In this document: positions 4,884-63,824 of the stretch, in pieces | Position numbering within the stretch: position 1 is the stretch's first letter | Layout of the letters: each line of letters begins with the position of its first letter | UHGV virus genome: UHGV-1351333 | Direction: 5' to 3' (one strand) | DNA length: 64,000 bases | Origin: a virus | Notes under the pieces: model-generated | What the model was told of the DNA's origin: nothing | The model's input: only the letters and a program-made list of their open reading frames with translations | The model's database searches: none | Made by a program: the position numbers and the translations under genes

Positions 4884-4943
4884 AGGCCGTCCTGATAACC
4901 ACACAGGATTAAAAGCCCAGTTGGATCATGAGAGAGATGGCAG

Positions 4944-20205: not shown

Positions 20206-20330
20206 ATTGACCCGTGGGGTTTCTTAATGAGAAGGTTTTTCCCTCCCTTTGATGAGAACAATTTAACACTATATTTTAAAAATTGCAAGAGAAAAAAGCA
20301 TAAAAATGATTTTTTATTACATCAAATCAA
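20206..20330 (-). promoter_or_regulatory. Inverted copy of promoter-leader element lacking the palindrome
   Basis: The reverse complement contains ...TCTTGCAATTTTTAAAATATAGTGTTAAATTGTTCTCATCAAAGGGAGGGAAAAACCTTCTC upstream of the 19837-20205 minus gene. Confidence 0.55.
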
Positions 20331-20510
20331 TCGGCAGCAAATAATACGCGCATTTAATCAGCACGATGCCCGCCAGCCAGTTAAGAACCGCCATAACCGG
20401 CATTCGGTGCTTGATGCAGGAAAAAGTGCAAAGCATCATTTGAGCGCCAAGAATCGTTATGGCCCCGGAAATTAAAAATTGCAAAAACATCGATTGGCGG
20501 TCAGCGCGTG

Positions 20511-47730: not shown

Positions 47731-47897
47731 GCGTCAATTTGTAGCGGTATTTTTCCTTTTAAGACTGCGCACAACTATATGTTGCGGCTATTTTCGCGAA
47801 CGGTCGACCCCGGAAAAATAGAGACTTGAACCGGCTTGGCGGTAAGTTAAGATGCCGAAGGTTAAACACTAGTTTGGCTGTCTTTATCTATCTTTTG

Positions 47898-47940
47898 CCC
47901 CTAATCCGGAGTGATGCCCGGATTAGGGGATTTTTTATTT
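47898..47940 (+). terminator. Intrinsic terminator
   Basis: CCCCTAATCCGG-AGTGATGC-CCGGATTAGGGG followed by ATTTTTTATTT. Confidence 0.8.
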
Positions 47941-47945
47941 CTCAA

Positions 47946-48080
47946 TTTGCAATCATTGCAAATTTTTTTCGTGAAAAACTCTTTTTTCTCTTGCAATTCT
48001 TAAGATATAGTGTTAAATTACATTCATCAAAGGGAGGAAAGCTCCTGAGAGAGAAAAAACAAAAAACCTGTTAGAAAAAA
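47946..48080 (+). promoter_or_regulatory. Conserved promoter-leader element (full copy)
   Basis: Same architecture as 46782-46919. Leader hairpin GGGAGG-AAAG-CTCCT. ATG at 48081. Confidence 0.7.
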
Positions 48081-48554: not shown

Positions 48555-49160
48555 ATGAAACCGATTGCTCAACTCCAAATGACCGATTTGCTGCACGACG
48601 CCGATTGCCTTTCAGAAGAGGCGTACCGTTCCCGGCTGCGCTACCTTGGCAGGCTGGTCGATTCGCCCCGGAACAGCTCTATGGCGCGAAAAGTGCGGAA
48701 CACGAGCGCTAAACGCTGGAACCGTTTGATTCAGCTTGTGCATAATGGTTATATTGCCTCCGACGATTCCCTGGACCGCCACAGCCGCAGCTGGCTGGAA
48801 CCGGCGCTAGGCTATACGGCGCTGCACGTTTTCATTTCCGCCGGAAGAAGGCGGCTGTTGTTTGCCCAGATTATGATGGACGAGCTTTTTTCCGGGCGGG
48901 AGCCTGCCGGTTTTGCCGAACTTATCGCTCTTGTAGCCAAAGGGGTGGCCTTCGGACGCTGTAGTCCCGGAATCCGGTACGAACTGCCCCCGAAAATCAG
49001 GCAGGAGCTGGAATTGAACGCCGGAAAGGGGTGCGGGACGAGCGTCCGGAAAAATCTGGAAGACAGCATTCGGCATCTGGACGGCATCAGCCGGAAGTGC
49101 ACCGGGGAACCTGTCATTACTCACATGCTTTACTATGGCCTCCGATTGTTCTCCTGCTAA
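48555..49160 (+). CDS. Hypothetical protein
   Basis: 201 aa. Its 3' end overlaps the HsdM-like ORF by 26 nt in another frame. Confidence 0.4.
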   Translation: MKPIAQLQMTDLLHDADCLSEEAYRSRLRYLGRLVDSPRNSSMARKVRNTSAKRWNRLIQLVHNGYIASDDSLDRHSRSWLEPALGYTALHVFISAGRRRLLFAQIMMDELFSGREPAGFAELIALVAKGVAFGRCSPGIRYELPPKIRQELELNAGKGCGTSVRKNLEDSIRHLDGISRKCTGEPVITHMLYYGLRLFSC

Positions 49161-49905
49161 GCCTGCCGCGGACCATTCGGCGAAACCGAGTTTCTATTCG
49201 GTATTGGAAAAACTGCCGCTGGACCACCTGCGCTCGTCCGAACGGTTTTTTCTGTGGCTGGAATTCGTTTTTTCCGTCATGTCCGGAACGCCCCTGGATT
49301 CGTCCGCCGCTGAAAAAATGGGCAGGGGCAGGAGCAGTTACGAGACCGTTCAGCGGGGATTCCTGGACTGCATTGCGCTTCTTGGTGACGAGATGGAGCG
49401 GAGGCCGTATGAAGACCTGCTGGGCGGGTACCATGAAATGCTGAACAGCCGGATAGACCGGACCGTAAACGGTCAATTTTATACTCCGACAAACATTTGC
49501 CGCATGATGGCCCGCATTACCGTATCAGAGCAGTTTGCGGAAAACCTGAAACCGGGGGAAGTCATATCGCTAAGCGAACCTTCTTGCGGCTCCGGGCGGA
49601 ATGTGCTTGCCGCGGCGGAAGTCCTTGGCCGCCACCGCTCCAAAATGAGAGTAACCTGCACCGATATTGACATCCGGGCGTGCTGGATGTGCTACATCAA
49701 CCTGACCATGTGGGGGATTCCGGCAACAGTCGTCCACGGAGATTCCCTGCGCCTGAAAGAATGGGGGCGCTGGGTCAACATGTTCTGGCAGCTTGGGGAG
49801 GCGGAAAGAAAGCAGCAGCTTAAATCAAAAAAAATCATGGATGCGATTAAAAACCTTCAATTTGCCGAATCGGACTCCCCGGCTTTTCCCCGAAGCCGAA
49901 ATTGA
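49135..49905 (+). CDS. HsdM-like N6-adenine methyltransferase-like protein lacking NPPF/Y catalytic motif
   Basis: GQFYTPTNICRMM (gamma-class motif X), EPSCGSGRNVL (motif I), CYINLTMWGI and HGDSL blocks as in HsdM. No NPP[FY] motif before the stop. Confidence 0.5.
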   Translation: MASDCSPAKPAADHSAKPSFYSVLEKLPLDHLRSSERFFLWLEFVFSVMSGTPLDSSAAEKMGRGRSSYETVQRGFLDCIALLGDEMERRPYEDLLGGYHEMLNSRIDRTVNGQFYTPTNICRMMARITVSEQFAENLKPGEVISLSEPSCGSGRNVLAAAEVLGRHRSKMRVTCTDIDIRACWMCYINLTMWGIPATVVHGDSLRLKEWGRWVNMFWQLGEAERKQQLKSKKIMDAIKNLQFAESDSPAFPRSRN

Positions 49906-56606: not shown

Positions 56607-56757
56607 AAAAGAACCGGGAGAGAAAAATGAAGGGACTCCGGCTTCCCGCGGCCGAACGGTCGGATGCCTGCCCCCGGAACATGAAACCGGAATGAGAGGA
56701 TTTTACAGGCAGACGTTTGTTGCCGCTCAAGCCATGCGCATGCGCGTAAACGTGAAC

Positions 56758-56787
56758 AAAAAAAGCGGGCTTGCTTTTTCAGCCCGT
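56758..56787 (-). terminator. Minus-strand intrinsic terminator
   Basis: On the minus strand ACGGGCT-GAAAAAGCA-AGCCCGC followed by TTTTTTT. No T tract for the plus strand. Confidence 0.45.
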
Positions 56788-56925
56788 AAAATATAGGCTG
56801 GGGCCGTTTCCCCGGCAGGAAAAAAGGGAAGGGGAACAGGCGTTCTTTCTTTCCTTTTTTTTCGGGCCTGAAATCTGCGTCACCACTACCACAGGCCGGG
56901 CGGGGACGGAAAGACAAATATCGCC

Positions 56926-57624
56926 ATGCAGGAAAAAAATCCTAATACATCCGTCGGTCCAGTCCCGCACCGGGGCCGGAAAAAGCGCAGAAACCTTCCT
57001 TCCCCGGCTGATTTGCCCGCCCCTCCGTCCAACAGGATTATAGGCCGCGTTATTTCTGACGACAGCATCCGACAGAAGGCTTTGGAGATTCAACGGGCCG
57101 CTCAGGAGCAGAAAAAGAAGGAAGAGCAGGAAGCGTTCTTGAACGCCTATAAGGAGTCGTTCGCGCTGCCGCATATTGCCGCGAAAAAGTGCCGCGTTTC
57201 CATCAGCAAGCACAATTACTGGTTTAATTCGGATTCGGACTACCGCCGCCGCGCGCAGGAAATCCGCGAGTTCTGCGCCGAGCATTTGCAGGCTAAAATG
57301 TACAAGAGCGCCCTTGCCGGAGACGGCCAGATGCTCCGGTATCTGGACCAGCGGCGCATTGCCGCCGAGCAGAATAACGCGTTGAAGATTGCCGTCGAGC
57401 ATTCCGGAACGGTCGGATGCTCGTTTACGTCGGAAGAAGAACTGAAGGAGAAAACGGGCTTTACCGTGAGCCGCATGGAACACACTCTGAAAATGCTCGC
57501 TGACTACGCCCCGGAAGCGTTGCGTCAGATTCTCGTCGCGCCGGAAGAAATACCGGACACGGCCCCGGCCCTCCGGAGGAAGGGAAGGCCGTCGTCAGAG
57601 GGGCGCCGCAACAACACTCTATAA
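56926..57624 (+). CDS. Terminase small subunit candidate
   Basis: Directly upstream of the large terminase. Basic N-terminus. HTH-like AFLNAYKESFALPHIAAKKCRVSISKHNYW. Confidence 0.4.
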   Translation: MQEKNPNTSVGPVPHRGRKKRRNLPSPADLPAPPSNRIIGRVISDDSIRQKALEIQRAAQEQKKKEEQEAFLNAYKESFALPHIAAKKCRVSISKHNYWFNSDSDYRRRAQEIREFCAEHLQAKMYKSALAGDGQMLRYLDQRRIAAEQNNALKIAVEHSGTVGCSFTSEEELKEKTGFTVSRMEHTLKMLADYAPEALRQILVAPEEIPDTAPALRRKGRPSSEGRRNNTL

Positions 57625-57628
57625 TAAT

Positions 57629-57651
57629 AGCGCGTGCGCGTACGCGCGTAC
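57629..57651. repeat. GCGCGT(AC) tandem/palindromic repeat between small and large terminase genes
   Basis: AGCGCGTGCGCGTACGCGCGTAC contains the CGCGTACGCG palindrome. Followed at 57687-57705 by a C11T8 tract ending 1 nt before the TerL ATG. Confidence 0.6.
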
Positions 57652-57706
57652 AAAGAGCGTTCCTTTTCCCGGTTTTCATCTTTTCTCCCCCCCCCCCTTT
57701 TTTTTC

Positions 57707-59206
57707 ATGCACGATACCACCATCACCGCAGAAGACGGCGCGCCCGGCTGCCGGAGCCGCCTGGAAGAAACCGCCATGCTGGTCCCCCGGCTGCTGTTAA
57801 AAGCCCGTACCGATTTTACCGCGTTCCTGCTCGCCATTTCCGACGAGGAATCCGGTTACATCCTGTCCCGAATGCACCTGTTCATCGCGGGCAAGCTCAA
57901 TGATACTGTCACCCGGCGGGACGCGCCGAGGAATTACACCATTTCCGTGCCGCCCCAGCATGGGAAATCTTCCTTGATTGTGCGGTATGTCGCGTGGCTG
58001 GTAGGGGCTTATCCGAGATTGTGCGTCGCCCTGACCGGCTTTTCCGCCGAACTGATGGGCCAGATGCTCCGGCAAGTCACGTCCATTATGGATTTGCCCG
58101 TGTATCAGGTGATTTTTCCGGGGGTGAAAGTAAAGCCGAAGGATGACCGCTGGGATTACAAGCGTTTTACCAACGACGCTATCATTTACGCCAAACCGGC
58201 AGGTTCCAAGCTGACCGGGAGGCGGGTGGACATCCTCATCATCGACGACCCCCATGCCGGACGCGCCGAAGCGGAATCCCCCACTATCCGCAACCGCGTC
58301 GTGCAGTGGGCCGTTGCAGACTGCTTTTCCCGCCTTTCGCCCCATTGGCGGGTGTTCGTCATCGGCACCCGGTGGCATCCGGAAGACCTCATCGGACACC
58401 TTACCGGGAGAGAGTACAACAAACGCCTTGAAATGCTGGGCAACACCGCCATGAAATTTGAGGTCATCAAAATTCCGGCCATTTGCGAAGACCCGGCTAC
58501 CGACCCGCTGGGGCGGGAGGCCGGAGAAGTGGCGTTTCCGGAAGAACGCGACCTGGAGTTTCTAACTTCCATCCGGGGGGCCATGACCACGACGGAGTGG
58601 AAATCGCAATACCAGCAGGAGCCGGTCACGTCCAAGGGCGGGCAGGTCAACGCGGATGACTTTAACATTATTTCCCCGGACGAAGTGCCGTGGGGCGAGC
58701 TGACGGCCATCGGCTCCGGCTGGGATTTGGCCGCAACCGACAAAACGGCTTCCGACTGGACCGTAGGCACGTGCGGGGCGAGAACGAGGGATGGCCGTTT
58801 GTACATCTTCGACCAGTTCCGCAGGCAGATGCAGATTCCGAAACTGCTTCCGGCCATCGAAGCCCGCGCCCTGGCGTGGAAAGACGCGCATGGGGCCAAC
58901 CAACTGGGCGTGGAAGGCGTCGGGGGCATGGTCGGATATTATCAGCAGCTTCGCCAAATGCTTCTGGGGAAAATCAGCGTGCGGCTCAAAAATCCCCCGG
59001 TCAAAGGAGGAGGAAAGCTGGTGCGGGCGCAGAACTGGCTGGCCCTGGTCGAGGCGAAAAAAGTGTATCTGGTGCAAGCCCCGTGGGTGCGGGCGTTTCT
59101 GGAAGAAGTAGAAGTGTTCCCTGACGGTGACCATGACGACCAGGTGGACAGCGTTTCCATCCTTTATGAGCTTCTGTTCCTGTCTACCCGTATTCTGGTT
59201 GGATAG
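57707..59206 (+). CDS. Terminase large subunit
   Basis: Walker A VPPQHGKSS, Walker B ILIIDDPHAG. C-terminal nuclease-domain acidic residues (GSGWDLAATDK... FPDGDHDDQVDSVS). Confidence 0.85.
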   Translation: MHDTTITAEDGAPGCRSRLEETAMLVPRLLLKARTDFTAFLLAISDEESGYILSRMHLFIAGKLNDTVTRRDAPRNYTISVPPQHGKSSLIVRYVAWLVGAYPRLCVALTGFSAELMGQMLRQVTSIMDLPVYQVIFPGVKVKPKDDRWDYKRFTNDAIIYAKPAGSKLTGRRVDILIIDDPHAGRAEAESPTIRNRVVQWAVADCFSRLSPHWRVFVIGTRWHPEDLIGHLTGREYNKRLEMLGNTAMKFEVIKIPAICEDPATDPLGREAGEVAFPEERDLEFLTSIRGAMTTTEWKSQYQQEPVTSKGGQVNADDFNIISPDEVPWGELTAIGSGWDLAATDKTASDWTVGTCGARTRDGRLYIFDQFRRQMQIPKLLPAIEARALAWKDAHGANQLGVEGVGGMVGYYQQLRQMLLGKISVRLKNPPVKGGGKLVRAQNWLALVEAKKVYLVQAPWVRAFLEEVEVFPDGDHDDQVDSVSILYELLFLSTRILVG

Positions 59207-59219
59207 CCGGGAAATAAAA

Positions 59220-59316
59220 TTTGCAATCATTGCAAATTTGCAAGCCATGGCTAAATAGTTTCTTTTTTTTCTTGCAAAATGTTATATATGCGTTTCTTTG
59301 TATAGATTAAACAGCC
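59220..59316 (+). promoter_or_regulatory. Palindrome plus adjacent third TTTGCAA half-site and promoter-like boxes
   Basis: TTTGCAATCATTGCAAA followed directly by TTTGCAAGCC, then ...TTCTTGCAAAATGTTATATATG. At the left border of the AT-rich island, upstream of the ParB-like gene. Confidence 0.6.
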
Positions 59317-59856
59317 ATGGAAAATAATAAAATTATTTATTTATCGCCTGATAAACTTATTGAGTATGATAATAATACCCGTCTTCATGATGAGGAGCAG
59401 ATTAACCAAATTTGTAGGTCTATTCGTGAATTTGGATTTACAAATCCTATTCTTATCGATGAAAACAATATTATTATTGCTGGACACGGACGTAAAGCCG
59501 CCGCAATTAGGCTTGGGCTAAAAACAATCCCCGCTATCCGATTATCTGGATTAACGGATAAGCAAATAAAGGCACTGCGTATTGCCGATAATAAGCTTGC
59601 ACTTAATGCGGGCTGGGATGATGAGCTATTAAAGTTTGAGATTTTAAGTCTGCAAGAGAGCGATTTTGACTTAGAGTTATTAGGCTTCTCCGTGGATGAA
59701 ATTGACAGCTTTCTTGTCGCAGAGGAAGAAATAAAAGAGGAAGGAGAATTAAAATGCGAAGAAGCTAAAGAAAAAATACCAAATGATTTTAAAACTGTAG
59801 AAGAAACAAAACTAGTTCATAGATGCCCGCGATGCAATTATGAATTTAATGACTAA
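59317..59856 (+). CDS. ParB-like nuclease domain protein
   Basis: IEYDNNTRLHDEEQINQICRSIREFGFTNPILIDENNIIIAGHGRKAAAIRLGLKTIP matches the ParB N-terminal (ParBc) domain. Lies in an island of about 30% GC. Confidence 0.6.
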   Translation: MENNKIIYLSPDKLIEYDNNTRLHDEEQINQICRSIREFGFTNPILIDENNIIIAGHGRKAAAIRLGLKTIPAIRLSGLTDKQIKALRIADNKLALNAGWDDELLKFEILSLQESDFDLELLGFSVDEIDSFLVAEEEIKEEGELKCEEAKEKIPNDFKTVEETKLVHRCPRCNYEFND

Positions 59857-59876
59857 CAATGAACGGATAGCTATTT

Positions 59877-60941
59877 ATGGAGTATAAGATTCCGACAGTT
59901 TTAGAAATCAAAGAGCGTCTTGCCAAGGAGGGGCCATTATTTAATGTTGTTTCATTGTTTGCCGGTGGCGGAGGAAGTTCATGCGGCTATAGAATGGCCG
60001 GAGCCAAGGTACTCGCAATAAATGAATTTATACCTGAAGCAAGAAATACTTATCATGCTAATTGGCCAGATACTACAATCTTTCCTTGCGACGTGCGAGA
60101 CTTAGACGCAAATGATATTTTAAGAGCTATTAATATGGCGCCGGGTGAACTTGATGTACTTGACGGGTCTCCACCCTGTTGCGGGTTTTCTTCTTCCGGA
60201 AAAAGAAGTAAAGGATGGGGGCAAAATAGGAGATATTCTGACTCAGCCCAGGTAGGAGTTGAAACTCTTTTTTTTGAGTACATCCGAATTTTGCGAGAAT
60301 TAAAGCCTAAATGTTTTATCGCTGAAAATGTTGCTGGATTAGCACAAGGCGTATCACGCGGTTATCTTAATGAATTTCTAAGAGCATTCTCCGCATCTGA
60401 TTATATATGTAAAGCAAAAATCCTTAATGCACAGTATCTTGGTGTACCACAGTGCCGACATAGACTTATTTTTGTCGGTGTTAGAAAAGACTTATGGCGT
60501 TCAGAGTTTGAAAATAAAACGCATCCGAAACCGTTTAGCTATTTAATACCGCTCAAAGATGCTTTTCGCGGTATTATAAATACGTCAGAAGAGCTTGCGC
60601 AGGTTGATATATCAAAATACGTGATTTATCAACGTCTTATAAAGTTGAAAAAGGGGAAATCTGACTCTGAAAGGTTTAATCTGGTAAAAGCTGATGATAA
60701 TAGGCCGTCTCCGTGCATAACGGCGTCCACTGGACGTTTAGGGTGCGCTTGTGCCTGTCATTGGGACAATAGAGCTTTTACACTTAAAGAGCTTAAAAGA
60801 ATAACAAGCGTACCAGACGATTATATATTAACAGGAACATATAGCCAGCAGGTTGAACGGCTCGGACGTATGGTCCCACCCTTGATGATGAAAGCAGTCG
60901 CAGCAAATCTTTATACTAATATTTTAAAGGAGTTAAAATGA
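59877..60941 (+). CDS. DNA cytosine-5 methyltransferase
   Basis: Motif I FAGGGGSSCGY, motif IV GSPPCCGFSSSG (PC catalytic dipeptide), motif VI IAENVAGL. Lies in the AT-rich island. Confidence 0.8.
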   Translation: MEYKIPTVLEIKERLAKEGPLFNVVSLFAGGGGSSCGYRMAGAKVLAINEFIPEARNTYHANWPDTTIFPCDVRDLDANDILRAINMAPGELDVLDGSPPCCGFSSSGKRSKGWGQNRRYSDSAQVGVETLFFEYIRILRELKPKCFIAENVAGLAQGVSRGYLNEFLRAFSASDYICKAKILNAQYLGVPQCRHRLIFVGVRKDLWRSEFENKTHPKPFSYLIPLKDAFRGIINTSEELAQVDISKYVIYQRLIKLKKGKSDSERFNLVKADDNRPSPCITASTGRLGCACACHWDNRAFTLKELKRITSVPDDYILTGTYSQQVERLGRMVPPLMMKAVAANLYTNILKELK

Positions 60942-61594
60942 AAATTCCAAAGAGCTGGACATTTAAAGATAACCAAGTCGCAAAGAAATTTGACTCTCAT
61001 GTACGAGAGCAGTTGCCGTGGTATAACATTCTTACAAATCTTGTGGCTATTGTAGCTAAACATTACATGCCGGAGAATGGCATTGGATATGATATTGGCG
61101 CAAGTACAGGCAACCTCGGCAATGTACTTAAAGATATTATAAAATCCAGAAGATTTAACTGGATAGGAATCGATAATTCTGAGCAAATGAAAGCGTATTA
61201 TCGTGCTCCCGGAAAGCTTGAAATTTGTGATGCTATAGATTACGATTTTCAATCTTTCGATATTGCAGTCTGTTTTTTAGTCCTTATGTTCTTTCCTAAA
61301 GATAAGCGAGAACTCTGGTTAAAAAATCTTATTGAAAAAGCAAAGTTTGGAGCTGCGATAATTATCGTAGATAAAGAAGAATTAAAGGGTGGAATTTTAT
61401 CGACAGCTTTATACCGAGCAACAGTTTTAAGTAAGTTAGAATATACGACTGCTGAGAAAATTCTTGAAAAAGAATCATCTCTTTGCGGTATTCAAAACCC
61501 ATTGCCTCGTGATTTTATGCTGCAATTTGGCGCAACAGAGATTTTCAGGTTTGGTGATTTTGCCGCATGGGTTATCGAGAAAAAATGGCATTAG
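60938..61594 (+). CDS. Class I SAM-dependent methyltransferase, CmoA-like layout
   Basis: WTFKDNQVAKKFDSHV...LPWY..., YDIGASTGNLG (motif I), WIGIDNSEQM, VCFLVLMFFP...AAIIIVDK parallel CmoA blocks (WTFDERVAEVFPDM, YDLGCSLG, IAIDNSPAM, LNFTLQFL...LVLSEK). SD-like AAAGGAG upstream. Confidence 0.5.
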   Translation: MKIPKSWTFKDNQVAKKFDSHVREQLPWYNILTNLVAIVAKHYMPENGIGYDIGASTGNLGNVLKDIIKSRRFNWIGIDNSEQMKAYYRAPGKLEICDAIDYDFQSFDIAVCFLVLMFFPKDKRELWLKNLIEKAKFGAAIIIVDKEELKGGILSTALYRATVLSKLEYTTAEKILEKESSLCGIQNPLPRDFMLQFGATEIFRFGDFAAWVIEKKWH

Positions 61595-61861
61595 TCTATT
61601 TAACATTTACATTCATAATAATAAAATTATTCGTCCGAAGTATCGGAAGCCGAAAAAAACAGCTTGCAATTTCAGCCCCTTGATGCGATATTGCCAGTGT
61701 TGCCCGCGTTGACGGGAACCTGATTCATGCCTTGAAAATTTAAAGTAAAGGCGCAACAACCGATAAATAGCTGCTATCAAGAAAGACAAGCCCCCGGCCT
61801 TCTCCTGCATCCCATCGCGCATATCAAAAGCCTGTCATGCGTTCCGCAGGAAACCGGGGGC

Positions 61862-62218
61862 TTGTTTTATGCCGCCCCTCCGGATATAACGGACGGCGTC
61901 ATGATTGTCTTAAATACTCCCATTGCTACCATACCGGGACGCCGGTACTGCATTACCACCGTATCATCCGTTCAGGTGATAGCTGCCATTGACGGGGAAG
62001 AATTCGACCTGCTGGGGGGCCTTCCCGTTTCCGGCCAGGCGCAGTTCGTCGCTCCGACGGACCACATTGAAGTGCGGGACGCATCAACCCCGGAAGAAGA
62101 AACGGCCAGCGCGGCTGAACCGTCCGCGGAACCGTCAAGCGCCATGTTCGGCACAGTGTCCCTTGCCGGGGATGCGGCTTCCGTAGCCGGGAACATTGTC
62201 GAGATTGTGCGCAGTTGA
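61862..62218 (+). CDS. Hypothetical protein
   Basis: ORF-table coordinates; alternative start codon. Ala/Ser/Glu-rich C-terminus. Confidence 0.3.
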   Translation: MFYAAPPDITDGVMIVLNTPIATIPGRRYCITTVSSVQVIAAIDGEEFDLLGGLPVSGQAQFVAPTDHIEVRDASTPEEETASAAEPSAEPSSAMFGTVSLAGDAASVAGNIVEIVRS

Positions 62219-62484
62219 CAAGCTATCCCGGATTTGGCAGGATGCTCCCCGCATGCACGATTCGCTTCAAAGGCGTGGATTGAAACGATAAGGGCATGCG
62301 CTCTAGGTGTGTGCCTATTCCCGCCCTGTTCTGCGGACGGGAACAACAAGGGGTGCCCTTCCTTTTTTTCCAGGATGGCTGCGGCTGAAAAACCGCGGGG
62401 GAAGAAGGAAGGGCATTTTGCCGTGTTCATTCTTTTTTGTTTCTCGATTTTTTTATGTCTGAATCTGCTGCCCCCCCCTGCCGG

Positions 62485-63219
62485 ATGCACTGCATTATTC
62501 CGCTGAAAGCCCGCTCCGTGCGTTGTCCGGGAAAGAATTTCAGAACCTGCAACCCGTATCTTTCCGGGGGCCTGTTCTCTTTGTGGGAGGTGACGGCCAG
62601 ATACATCAGGGCGGAGGGCTGGGAGCCGGTCATCTCCTGTGACAGCCCGGAACTGCTGCGCGGCATTGCCCGGCGCGGATATGAACGCACCGTCTTATGG
62701 CGCCCTGACCCGGAATCCCCCTACATGCAGGGACACATCAGCCAGGTTGCCTTTAATATTGAAGCCAAAGATTCAGACCTGGTTTGCATAGCCCAGGCAA
62801 CTTCCCCGGTGCGCCGCTCCGGACTGCTCCGGGCCATGTACGCCCTGATGTCTTCCGATACCGCCATTCAGGCGGCGTTCACAGCGGAACGCCTGAAAAT
62901 CTGCGGCGTCCTGAACGGCGCAGTTTTCGGTCAGGATGAAAGCCAGTCCGCCCGGCACTGGTACGACCATTATGACGGGGGGCTTCTCCTGCTGCGCTAC
63001 GGAACCCTGAAACGCTGCCCTGCCCGGACGGTCGTGCATCCTGGGCTGCTGTCCGGCTCCGGCGACCGGGTGGCCGTGTTTTACCAGTTTTTGCCCTGGT
63101 CATTTCAAATTGACACGGAAGACGACTATTCCTTTTATCTGCAAATGCGTCCTGACGGGAATGAAAGCCCCCCCCTTTCCCGGACGGCCGAACACCCGTA
63201 CCGGATATACCCGGACTGA
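62485..63219 (+). CDS. Cytidylyltransferase (CMP-ulosonic/nonulosonic acid synthetase-like, CTP_transf_3)
   Basis: MHCIIPLKARSVRCPGKNF parallels IIPAR.GSKG...KN of KdsB/NeuA-type enzymes. AQATSPVRR parallels LQPTSPLR. A C8 tract lies 7 nt upstream of the ATG. Confidence 0.6.
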   Translation: MHCIIPLKARSVRCPGKNFRTCNPYLSGGLFSLWEVTARYIRAEGWEPVISCDSPELLRGIARRGYERTVLWRPDPESPYMQGHISQVAFNIEAKDSDLVCIAQATSPVRRSGLLRAMYALMSSDTAIQAAFTAERLKICGVLNGAVFGQDESQSARHWYDHYDGGLLLLRYGTLKRCPARTVVHPGLLSGSGDRVAVFYQFLPWSFQIDTEDDYSFYLQMRPDGNESPPLSRTAEHPYRIYPD

Positions 63220-63224
63220 CCAAT

Positions 63225-63824
63225 ATGATTGTGCTGATAGGCAACGCCCAGGAATCCGAGCACCGGCTTAACGACTGCTCCGCCATAATTGATTCCGGCA
63301 AGCCCCGGCTGGTGGTGAGGGTGTCGAAAATGTGCAACTACGATTCCGGGAAAACCGGAACGCGTTGTGACTGGGTATTCCTCAACCCCAATCCCGCCTA
63401 CTGGACATTCCCGCCGGAGCGCCGCCATTGGGGCGTCCTCGCCGGCGCCAGTAAAATCATCATCACGTACCCGCCGCCCGGAACCATGAAAGACGGGCCC
63501 TGCATCCCTCCGTACTGGCGCGGGGAAGAGTACCGTTTCCTGCACCAGCACCCCTTTCTGGAATATTTGCCGGAACCGGTATTCCGGGAAGGAATGTCCC
63601 GGCGGTTTACGACATTCGCCTTTGCCCTGTGGGTGCTTTCGCGGCGTTTCCCGCACGAACAGATAGCCTTGCACGGATGCATCACCTCACAGGACGTCTG
63701 GCGCCGCGTCCGCTGGTGTCCCTGGCATAATGGCGTCGGAGAGTTTGCATTGTACGCCGACCTGTTCCGGAACGGTCGGATTTTCAGACTGGACGGCGAT
63801 GAATTATGCTTTGATGACTGCTGA
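63225..63824 (+). CDS. Hypothetical protein (possible partner of cytidylyltransferase)
   Basis: 199 aa, Trp/Pro-rich. Starts 6 nt after the cytidylyltransferase gene. Confidence 0.4.
   Translation: MIVLIGNAQESEHRLNDCSAIIDSGKPRLVVRVSKMCNYDSGKTGTRCDWVFLNPNPAYWTFPPERRHWGVLAGASKIIITYPPPGTMKDGPCIPPYWRGEEYRFLHQHPFLEYLPEPVFREGMSRRFTTFAFALWVLSRRFPHEQIALHGCITSQDVWRRVRWCPWHNGVGEFALYADLFRNGRIFRLDGDELCFDDC

Follow-up and report, generated by a model that had tools for sequence, protein, structure and literature searches.

A low-GC island behind the terminase gene of an uncultured tailed phage: a probable ParB-CmoX-CmoA cassette for carboxymethylation of DNA cytosines that replaced a glycosyltransferase cassette

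What is a block of AT-rich DNA doing directly behind the large terminase gene (TerL) of a phage whose other genes are much richer in GC, and what do the genes that it carries make? The question is raised by the UHGV virus genome UHGV-1351333, of which we analysed one stretch of 64,000 nucleotides (nt), called the window below; all coordinates are positions in the window, and the genes lie on the + strand. A first-pass annotation, made from the letters alone, had noticed a low-GC island of three genes, read as a ParB-like gene, a Dcm-type cytosine C5-methyltransferase (C5-MTase) and a gene for a CmoA-like enzyme using S-adenosylmethionine (SAM), and had taken the island for a recently acquired anti-restriction methylation module. 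Here we present a different account of its chemistry: with good probability, the island is an acquired ParB-CmoX-CmoA cassette that makes carboxy-S-adenosylmethionine (Cx-SAM) for the carboxymethylation of cytosines in the phage DNA. The expected base, 5-carboxymethylcytosine (5cxmC), was considered unnatural until December 2025 (Yang et al., Nat Commun, PMC12783734). The CmoX/CmoA system itself is already known, having been published in late 2025, and the locus in the window is a new, uncharacterised member of it; what goes beyond the published description is a divergent CmoA clade without the known arginines, the replacement of a glycosyltransferase cassette by CmoX at one site, a conserved CPxC tail on the ParB protein and a fusion of ParB with a methyltransferase as an alternative partner.

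The break in composition is real and sharp. Within about 100 bp past the TerL stop codon (59206), the GC content of 100-nt windows drops from 0.56-0.61 to 0.24-0.33; it climbs back between 61650 and 61800. The exact limits of the foreign DNA come from two sister phages in IMG/VR (L005 and L006), whose TerL is 94-95% identical to that of the window in protein and 84% in DNA. In both sisters, homology to the window reaches 59239 and resumes at 61648, with 79-84% nt identity in the flanks (56757-59239 and 61648-63817); in between they carry other genes at a native GC of 0.49-0.55. This comparison sets the junctions at 59239/59240 on the left and 61622/61623 on the right, and so defines an imported cassette of 2,383 bp (59240-61622, + strand); the island as first drawn, 59237-61640, lies within 3 and 18 bp of them. 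Its GC content had been put at about 30%, a value that fits only the third codon positions (GC3), since the overall figure is 37.4%. Between the junctions GC is 37.5%, against 59% in the terminase gene and 56% downstream, which makes the island the lowest-GC stretch of the 64 kb; the next lowest 1-kb bins stand at 0.44-0.45. GC3 is 0.28, 0.31 and 0.31 in the ParB, C5-MTase-like and CmoA-like genes, compared with 0.73 in TerL (57707-59206; Terminase_6C, 8e-12) and 0.53-0.75 in all other open reading frames (ORFs) of at least 150 amino acids (aa). The proposed check by sliding-window GC and codon usage thus bears the island out, as both GC and GC3 break at its edges.

The middle gene (59877-60941, + strand; 354 aa) encodes a protein with the C5-MTase fold (PF00145, 1.7e-50 across residues 22-345; TIGR00675 'dcm', 1.1e-42), and the motifs first noticed in it are present, namely F28-x-G-x-G-G, P100-C101 and E150-N151-V152, together with Q192-x-R-x-R196. 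Its best match among PDB sequences, however, is SpCmoX of Synechococcus phage S-B43 (8YF3; E 7e-80, 42-46% identity over the full length), with ordinary C5-methyltransferases next at 6e-21. SpCmoX is a DNA cytosine C5-carboxymethyltransferase that takes Cx-SAM only, not SAM, and forms 5cxmC, a base that blocks HhaI; its target is GC, and its Arg350, which stands for the motif-X Asn of ordinary enzymes (Asn304 of M.HhaI), binds the carboxylate of Cx-SAM, so that the R350N mutant is inactive (Yang et al. 2025, PMC12783734). The same study defines candidate CmoX proteins by an SPPC motif plus the motif-X Arg (PMC12783734). In the window protein, the catalytic Cys101 sits within S98-P99-P100-C101 (DGSPPCCGF), the counterpart of S95-P96-P97-C98, and the alignment with SpCmoX shows no change at F28/G30/G32, P100-C101, E150-N151-V152 or Q192/R194/R196. 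At motif X, G330-R331 in ERLGRMVPPLMMKA aligns with G349-R350 in ERVGRMVPPLMMKA, ERLGR331MVPPLMMKA being the counterpart of ERVGR350MVPPLMMKA. The ordinary methyltransferases 3G7U and HaeIII have GN(S/A)V where the window has G-R-M-V, and the G-N-(S/A)-V motif X of the Dcm/M.HhaI type, in which the Asn forms part of the lining of the methyl/SAM pocket, is not present in the window protein. The arginine is found in 120/120 nearest homologs from a database of 5.8 billion sequences, and a regular expression for SPPC matches 118 of these 120.

Because it carries both SPPC and Arg331, the pair of features by which CmoX candidates were defined, we call the protein CmoX-type: judged by its sequence, it is most likely a predicted DNA cytosine C5-carboxymethyltransferase and not a Dcm-type 5-methylcytosine (5mC) methylase. 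The label 'Dcm-type' has to be given up in view of the Arg-for-Asn exchange and the overall CmoX sequence, and with it goes the word 'methylation', as enzymes of the CmoX family take Cx-SAM only (PMC12783734). Publicly, the identical protein is labelled 'Cytosine specific methyltransferase [Caudoviricetes sp.]', which is probably wrong on the chemistry as well. Oligonucleotide statistics for the CmoX target showed GC, CG, GCGC and GGCC near expectation in the window.

An enzyme expected to take only Cx-SAM directs attention to the third gene (60938-61594, + strand), which encodes a divergent CmoA-like protein of 218 aa that we predict to be a Cx-SAM synthase. Its best NCBIfam family is CmoA (TIGR00740; 6.5e-13, 48.9 bits), beside generic Pfam matches to Methyltransf_25/11/12, and among PDB sequences it comes closest to E. 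coli CmoA (4GEK, 1e-6). When the clade of the window protein (26 sequences) is aligned by hhalign with the CmoA proteins of E. coli, S-B43 and a Staphylococcus phage, the probability is 99.9% and E is 3.4e-34 over 215 columns (residues 4-217), that is, the full length. An AlphaFold model (pLDDT 90.9) has as its top Foldseek matches 4GEK and 4IWN, both E. coli CmoA, and 1IM8, H. influenzae YecO, with TM 0.80-0.84, the first of them at TM 0.84 and E 1e-13. E. coli CmoA contacts its cofactor through Y39, D62, G64, S66, D89, N90, D117, N132, F137 and E164 (Byrne et al. 2013, PMC3663124). The window residues Y29, D52, G54, S56, D79, N80, D98 and F118 are identical to their counterparts in this set, D145 takes the place of E164, and N132 is replaced by F113, a position that is also changed (L122) in the validated CmoA of S-B43 (SpCmoA). 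The CmoA assignment is well supported as homology and genomic role, and the activity would be that of a Cx-SAM synthase.

The third gene is also tied to the second. The Shine-Dalgarno sequence (SD) AAAGGAG that had been noticed ahead of it lies at 60927-60933 (+ strand), inside the end of cmoX and five bases before the ATG, and the cmoX stop and the CmoA-like start overlap by 4 nt (ATGA, 60938-60941), which indicates translational coupling of the two genes. The first-pass annotation had called a CmoA-like gene unusual in this context and suggested that it could make a modified SAM analogue or modify tRNA. The analogue is now the best-supported reading, CmoA being the best family, PDB and fold match, and the context has turned out to be anything but unusual, since CmoA is the defining partner of CmoX. 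The idea of tRNA modification was dropped because neither a CmoB homolog nor tRNA genes were found when the window was searched for them; relatives of the same clade stand beside CmoB in 0/80 bacterial loci.

How firm this partnership is can be read from other genomes. A CmoA gene is present in 73/80 IMG/VR loci encoding CmoX relatives, mostly directly downstream of CmoX; 66 of these genes are of the S-B43 type, 4 are E. coli-like and 3, which occupy that same slot, are of the window type. Beside terminase genes, the complete ParB-CmoX-CmoA trio is found again in Moraxella phage Mcat8 and three further loci (L065, L066 and L068), and CmoX with a CmoA-family gene recurs in L069-L071. Around the window-type CmoA clade in 80 bacterial-genome loci, an Arg-type C5-MTase lies upstream in 39/80, and a conserved fusion of about 500 aa, combining ParB_N with a weak class-I methyltransferase (MTase) signature, lies upstream in 31/80.

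The first gene of the cassette (59317-59856, + strand) encodes a protein of 179 aa with a ParB_N domain (ParB/Srx, ParB-CTPase fold; PF02195, 5e-7), as had been noticed from the start, followed by an acidic linker and a C-terminal H-x-C-P-R-C-N-Y-E-F tail. It differs from canonical ParB/Spo0J proteins, which add an HTH and a C-terminal dimerisation domain to ParB_N and work with ParA and parS sites, matching only their N-terminal domain and scoring 40.8 bits with TIGR00180 against a cutoff of 58.45, and no ParA partner was seen in Pfam scans of the window ORFs. It resembles instead the ParB proteins encoded ahead of CmoX elsewhere (39-55% identity in Mcat8, L065 and L066; 30% in L068), and the C-terminus HxCP[RK]C[GN][YF]x[FW] is common to all five. 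ParBc genes occur on 1660 CmoX contigs (Yang et al. 2025, PMC12783734), and a survey reports frequent fusions of ParB-CTPase folds with phage methyltransferases and the ability of such folds to bind CTP, ATP or GTP (PNAS 2025, PMC12704722). The gene, which lies inside the low-GC block, is part of the cassette; its product belongs to a CmoX-associated subfamily and is probably an accessory DNA-binding partner of CmoX, with a role in DNA loading or targeting as our inference.

In the S-B43 system a further enzyme, CmoY, an ATP-dependent amide ligase resembling Asn synthetase, carries the modification on to a glycine amide. Searches by tblastn with SpCmoY and with the Asn_synthase protein of locus L066 gave no match at E <= 1, whether in the window and the 10 kb that follow it, in the metagenome copies L052-L059 or in the sister phages L005-L006, and neither Pfam scans of 50 core ORFs nor the precomputed Pfam hits downstream included Asn_synthase or another ligase family. 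The core ORFs comprise structural, replication and glycosyltransferase genes and one N6_Mtase, with no TET. Such a ligase is also absent in 69/80 of the CmoX loci examined. With no ligase of the CmoY type detected in these searches, we predict 5cxmC itself as end product and final mark. In the mechanism that we propose, the CmoA-like enzyme would convert SAM and prephenate into Cx-SAM; CmoX would flip the target cytosine out of double-stranded phage DNA, attack its C6 with Cys101 and move the carboxymethyl group of Cx-SAM to C5, with Arg331 holding the carboxylate, to give 5cxmC; and the ParB-fold protein would bind DNA, possibly in a way dependent on nucleoside triphosphates (NTPs), and assist or target CmoX. 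The 5cxmC left in place would then protect the DNA of the phage against restriction enzymes. Besides the cassette, the core genome holds a second DNA-modification gene, the N6_Mtase gene at 49135-49905 (PF02384, 1.8e-8; 256 aa).

Several observations weigh against this reading. The score of the CmoA-like protein, 48.9 bits, is far from the TIGR00740 equivalog cutoff of 193.3; on the same scale E. coli CmoA reaches 455, the Staphylococcus phage protein 155.1, the validated SpCmoA 115.6 and the Mcat8 protein 63.5, so a proven enzyme likewise falls under the cutoff, which mitigates the low score. Identity to the two biochemically validated CmoAs, of E. coli and S-B43, is 19-21% (19% to SpCmoA), and discrimination by fold is modest, as CysG/BelI methyltransferases follow at TM 0.78 and E 2e-12. 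Where E. coli CmoA has its carboxylate-binding Arg199, the window protein has Glu179 by both MAFFT and hhalign, although SpCmoA also has a Glu there (E188); and at SpCmoA Arg192, five residues past the conserved Lys and one helical turn later, it has Cys183, a position held by Cys, Ser or Ala across its clade. One of eight metagenome copies of cmoX is frameshifted near codon 133 (L052:8941-10005) and not called as a gene, through either faulty assembly or a natural loss of function. Finally, the ligase scans covered all but about 10 kb of the genome of about 84 kb, a part outside the window and the fetched loci. The missing arginines and the low identity would suit a genuine CmoX whose CmoA-like neighbour makes some other SAM derivative or drains SAM, with Cx-SAM coming from the host; the pairing of the clade with the ParB-MTase fusion in 31/80 bacterial loci fits this too, and SAM depletion was raised as a possible side effect by Yang et al. 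(PMC12783734). We hold this to be unlikely, given the full-length CmoA homology, the conserved SAM contacts, the Lys before the Arg199 position (K178 in the window, K198 in E. coli), which every clade keeps, and the position of the gene in the slot of validated-type CmoA; moreover, the Arg of CmoX implies a carboxylated cofactor, and a phage that bears CmoX needs a guaranteed supply of it. Since both known carboxylate-binding arginines are missing and the clade has two unrelated partners (39/80 and 31/80), it is also conceivable, if rather unlikely, that the window clade consists of separate, DNA-dedicated cofactor synthases making an analogue other than Cx-SAM, or that the HxCPxC ParB partner is an NTP-gated loader confining modification to phage DNA. 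If so, the fusion partner found elsewhere would mark a second, undescribed carboxymethyl-type modification of nucleic acids.

5cxmC would be only an intermediate if an unrecognised ligase elsewhere in the phage or in the host turned it into an amide hypermodification, in the manner of CmoY in S-B43. In favour of this, 2251/5615 CmoX contigs carry AMP-forming ligases, which belong to several families (Yang et al., PMC12783734), an Asn_synthase gene lies just upstream of ParB in the close relative L066, and the 10 kb outside the scans could hold such a gene. The lack of any CmoY-type homolog in the window and the 10 kb downstream, of any ligase family by Pfam, and of a ligase in 69/80 CmoX loci makes this improbable, to about the same degree as a CmoA-like enzyme with another product. 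More remote still is an ordinary methylation module, in which the C5-MTase would use SAM to make 5mC and the third gene would be an unrelated methyltransferase for small molecules or tRNA. The good PF00145 and TIGR00675 matches, the public annotation and the generic Methyltransf_25/11/12 matches of the third gene speak for it, yet an enzyme with Arg331 for Asn, which matches SpCmoX at 7e-80 and ordinary enzymes at 6e-21, belongs with a protein that refuses SAM, and translation of the third gene is coupled to that of the MTase, in a window with neither tRNA genes nor CmoB; we regard this as very unlikely.

Contigs of 83-85 kb from many metagenomes represent the same phage at 98.6-99.2% nt identity, and the island is 99.5-100% identical across 8 independent metagenome contigs, with cmoX intact in 7/8; an assembly collection lists the identical CmoA-like protein in 244 of its index blocks. 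In the sister phages the site behind TerL is occupied by other genes, a 330-aa ParB_N protein followed by a TET-associated glycosyltransferase (TAGT; PF20691, 3.9e-27), at L005:9728-11652 and the equivalent place in L006. No CmoX or CmoA was found in the sister-phage stretches compared (17 kb and 10 kb), and no TET/JBP gene in the sister-phage DNA compared or among the window core genes. The window retains a piece of the glycosyltransferase gene, a non-coding remnant of its 3' end (the last ~33 codons) at 61623-61707 (+ strand) that matches L005 in both nucleotides and peptides: 61623-61648 agrees with L005 11551-11576 at 24/26 nt, and 61648-61707 with L005 11617-11676 at 50/60 nt. A 40-nt deletion and a frame shift break it, and the peptides KIIRPKYRKP and SRKKQLAISAP can still be recognised beside KIIRPEYRKP and SRKKLLAIPAP of the TAGT C-terminus. 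Since the remnant lies in the window, the direction of the replacement can be read from it: the ParB-TAGT cassette is ancestral, and ParB-CmoX-CmoA replaced it behind TerL. That the island was acquired is thus borne out by the GC/GC3 break, the other cassette at the same site in the sisters and the TAGT remnant, and its characterisation as an anti-restriction module is supported in so far as it is a DNA-modification cassette of the anti-restriction type.

Whether the acquisition was recent is less clear. The GC3 of the island has not been ameliorated, and cassettes of the same type elsewhere have a GC content within 0.4-5.8 percentage points of their own phage, but the island is already as free of GATC as the core genome. 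The window holds 9 GATC sites where 238 are expected (observed/expected 0.04), at 4924, 18074, 19301, 32312, 39376, 42861, 46202, 47343 and 55284; CTAG is at 0.04 of expectation and CCGG is 2.5-fold over-represented, and L005 and L006 share this pattern. In the island, where 8.0 GATC and 8 CTAG sites would be expected, there are 0 and 1. In the homologous cassettes of Mcat8, L068 and S-B43, GATC reaches or exceeds its expected frequency. The avoidance of GATC by the phage suggests strong GATC-directed restriction in the host, and the GATC-free island points either to a donor under the same restriction pressure or to selection that has already purged the sites. CCGG was considered as a hint to the CmoX target and set aside, being equally over-represented, 2.5-fold, in the sister phages that lack CmoX.

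A search for the donor, as had been proposed, named no lineage: blastn of the island against 50,697 phage records returned only a 52-nt match in the ParB domain, a pattern search for the CmoA-like protein in IMG/VR gave no match, and external homologs come no nearer than 67-68% identity. The phage with the island seems to be missing from IMG/VR, where its sisters do occur. No low-GC donor emerged, the closest genome match being a contig of a Congzhengia sp. metagenome-assembled genome with 50% GC. TerL is at most 32% identical to its counterparts in cultured phages, and no host was assigned. BACON domains were considered as a hint of a Bacteroidota host; a repeated promoter-like unit with TTGCAA/TAAATT and the SD AAAGGGAG speaks for a host that uses promoters of the sigma-70 type and starts translation at SD sequences. 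Beside these BACON-domain proteins, the phage encodes two GT25 and one GT11 glycosyltransferases. The gene at 62437-63219, two positions downstream of the island, encodes 'IIPLKARSVRCPGKNF', by eye like the P-loop motif of a cytidylyltransferase (CMP-sugar synthetase); Pfam gave no match for it.

The repeated unit leads to the left junction. The last resident sequence before the foreign DNA is a perfect palindrome of 23 bp, AAATTTGCAATCATTGCAAATTT (59217-59239), which is kept in L005 and L006 and directly past which the homology with them ends. As the repeat AAATTTGCAATNATTGCAAATTT, the 23-bp palindrome occurs in 16-17 copies in the window against 0.01-0.04 expected, all intergenic, with starts at 2467, 6513, 12533, 16530, 21548, 24393, 26364, 35641, 37772, 42949, 46779, 47943, 52496, 53001, 54216, 59217 and 63920. 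Eight copies head a conserved unit of about 95 nt whose parts resemble an operator, a -35 box TTGCAA, a TG-extended -10 box TAAATT and the SD mentioned above, and which is probably the phage's own promoter/operator family; the copy at the island keeps a T-run and TTGCAA (59272-59277) and then diverges. The palindromes are plausible recombination sites for cassettes, and we infer that they probably drive cassette expression. A moron would bring a promoter and a terminator of its own; scans for promoter and terminator consensus sequences around the cassette were not meaningfully above background, no convincing terminator lies behind the CmoA-like gene, and the left intergenic region showed no significant RNA fold (z -1.19). 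A direct repeat (59316-59337 and 61610-61631; 19/22 nt) was rejected as an att-like site or recombination scar because its left copy falls at the start of the ParB gene, 77 nt inward of the junction, because its right copy overlaps the TAGT-remnant homology, and because a 15-nt AT-only match is expected about 0.1 times by chance in AT-rich DNA, on a rough estimate.

Set beside known systems, the cassette is closest in predicted chemistry to CmoA-CmoY-CmoX of S-B43 (PMC12783734; 8YF3), with which it shares the CmoX similarity, SPPC, the carboxylate-binding Arg, an adjacent CmoA-family gene, the expected sequence of Cx-SAM synthesis and C5-carboxymethylation, and a ParBc gene nearby as on many CmoX contigs. 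It differs in gene order (ParB-CmoX-CmoA), in having no CmoY, so that 5cxmC and not the glycine amide is expected, in its much more divergent CmoA clade with no Arg at either position, and in being compositionally foreign to its phage; SpCmoX, for its part, targets GC. Moraxella phage Mcat8 (KR093632) has the same trio in the same order at 50%, 54% and 44% identity, with the CPxC tail and a terminase neighbourhood, but there the trio lies upstream of the small and large terminase genes, whereas in the window it lies downstream of TerL; the Mcat8 cassette (38% GC) fits its phage (40%), contains GATC at the expected frequency and is annotated as 'hypothetical'. The E. coli CmoA/CmoB pathway for cmo5U34 in tRNA has in common with the window the CmoA fold, the SAM-binding residues and Cx-SAM made from SAM and prephenate. 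The window, by contrast, lacks CmoB, its predicted acceptor is DNA cytosine C5 by way of a C5-MTase homolog, Arg199 is not conserved, and its CmoA-like protein is far under the NCBIfam equivalog cutoff. M.MpeI N374K, an engineered and earlier 'unnatural' 5cxmC enzyme (cited in PMC12783734), illustrates the same principle, in that a C5-MTase scaffold can use Cx-SAM once a basic residue stands for the motif-X Asn; the enzyme of the window occurs in nature, has Arg instead of Lys and comes with its own predicted cofactor synthase alongside. The ParB-TAGT cassette of the sister phages, finally, sits at the same site past TerL and the palindrome, begins with a ParB_N gene and is of the DNA-hypermodification type, but it would be expected to glycosylate a hydroxymethyl-pyrimidine type base, and it has the native GC (52-54%) of an ancestral occupant.

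Taken as a cytosine carboxymethylation pathway, the locus would place that chemistry in an abundant uncultured tailed phage of about 84 kb, and the system has been caught moving: ParB-CmoX-CmoA displaced a glycosyltransferase cassette at a hotspot behind the terminase gene. Because TAGT gave way to CmoX at one and the same site, chemistries of DNA modification appear to be interchangeable modules in the arms races between phages and hosts. The phage offers a natural test case for 5cxmC without an amide step as a protective mark, for the divergent CmoA clade as Cx-SAM synthase and for the role of the ParB partner. Bisulfite or nanopore calls of 5mC on the DNA of such a phage would mislead.

Some related loci deserve mention for their unusual partners. 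The ParB_N-MTase fusion of about 500 aa (for example L060:4066-5577 and L063:4511-6004, with 29 more in bacterial-genome loci among L150-L223) has an N-terminal ParB_N domain and a weak C-terminal Methyltransf_23 signature, follows a ParB_N gene and is without a solved relative. The two named examples share 47% identity, and the CmoA-like proteins beside the fusion are members of the window clade (about 45-50% identity). The fusion is a candidate for a new Cx-SAM-dependent transferase; no non-C5 candidates were found by Yang et al. 2025 (PMC12783734). In a Staphylococcus phage of the SPbeta-like type (L004:3989-5688), a CmoA gene (155 bits with TIGR00740) is followed by an 'hhaIM' C5-MTase that has GSPC instead of SPPC and a Gly at motif X, and so falls outside the published CmoX signature despite its CmoA neighbour. 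L065, a phage contig whose cassette comes nearest among the external ones (67% identity in CmoA), carries a second ParB_N gene and then a weak Radical_SAM protein at L065:5899-7478, between its ParB-CmoX-CmoA trio and the terminase genes; this pair may be another ParB-led modification cassette. Within the window, the sole other strongly AT-shifted coding candidates are two small ORFs, at 20227-20475 (GC 0.39, GC3 0.39) and 47826-48074 (0.37, 0.36), which may be further small morons, and the latter adjoins the palindrome copy at 47943.

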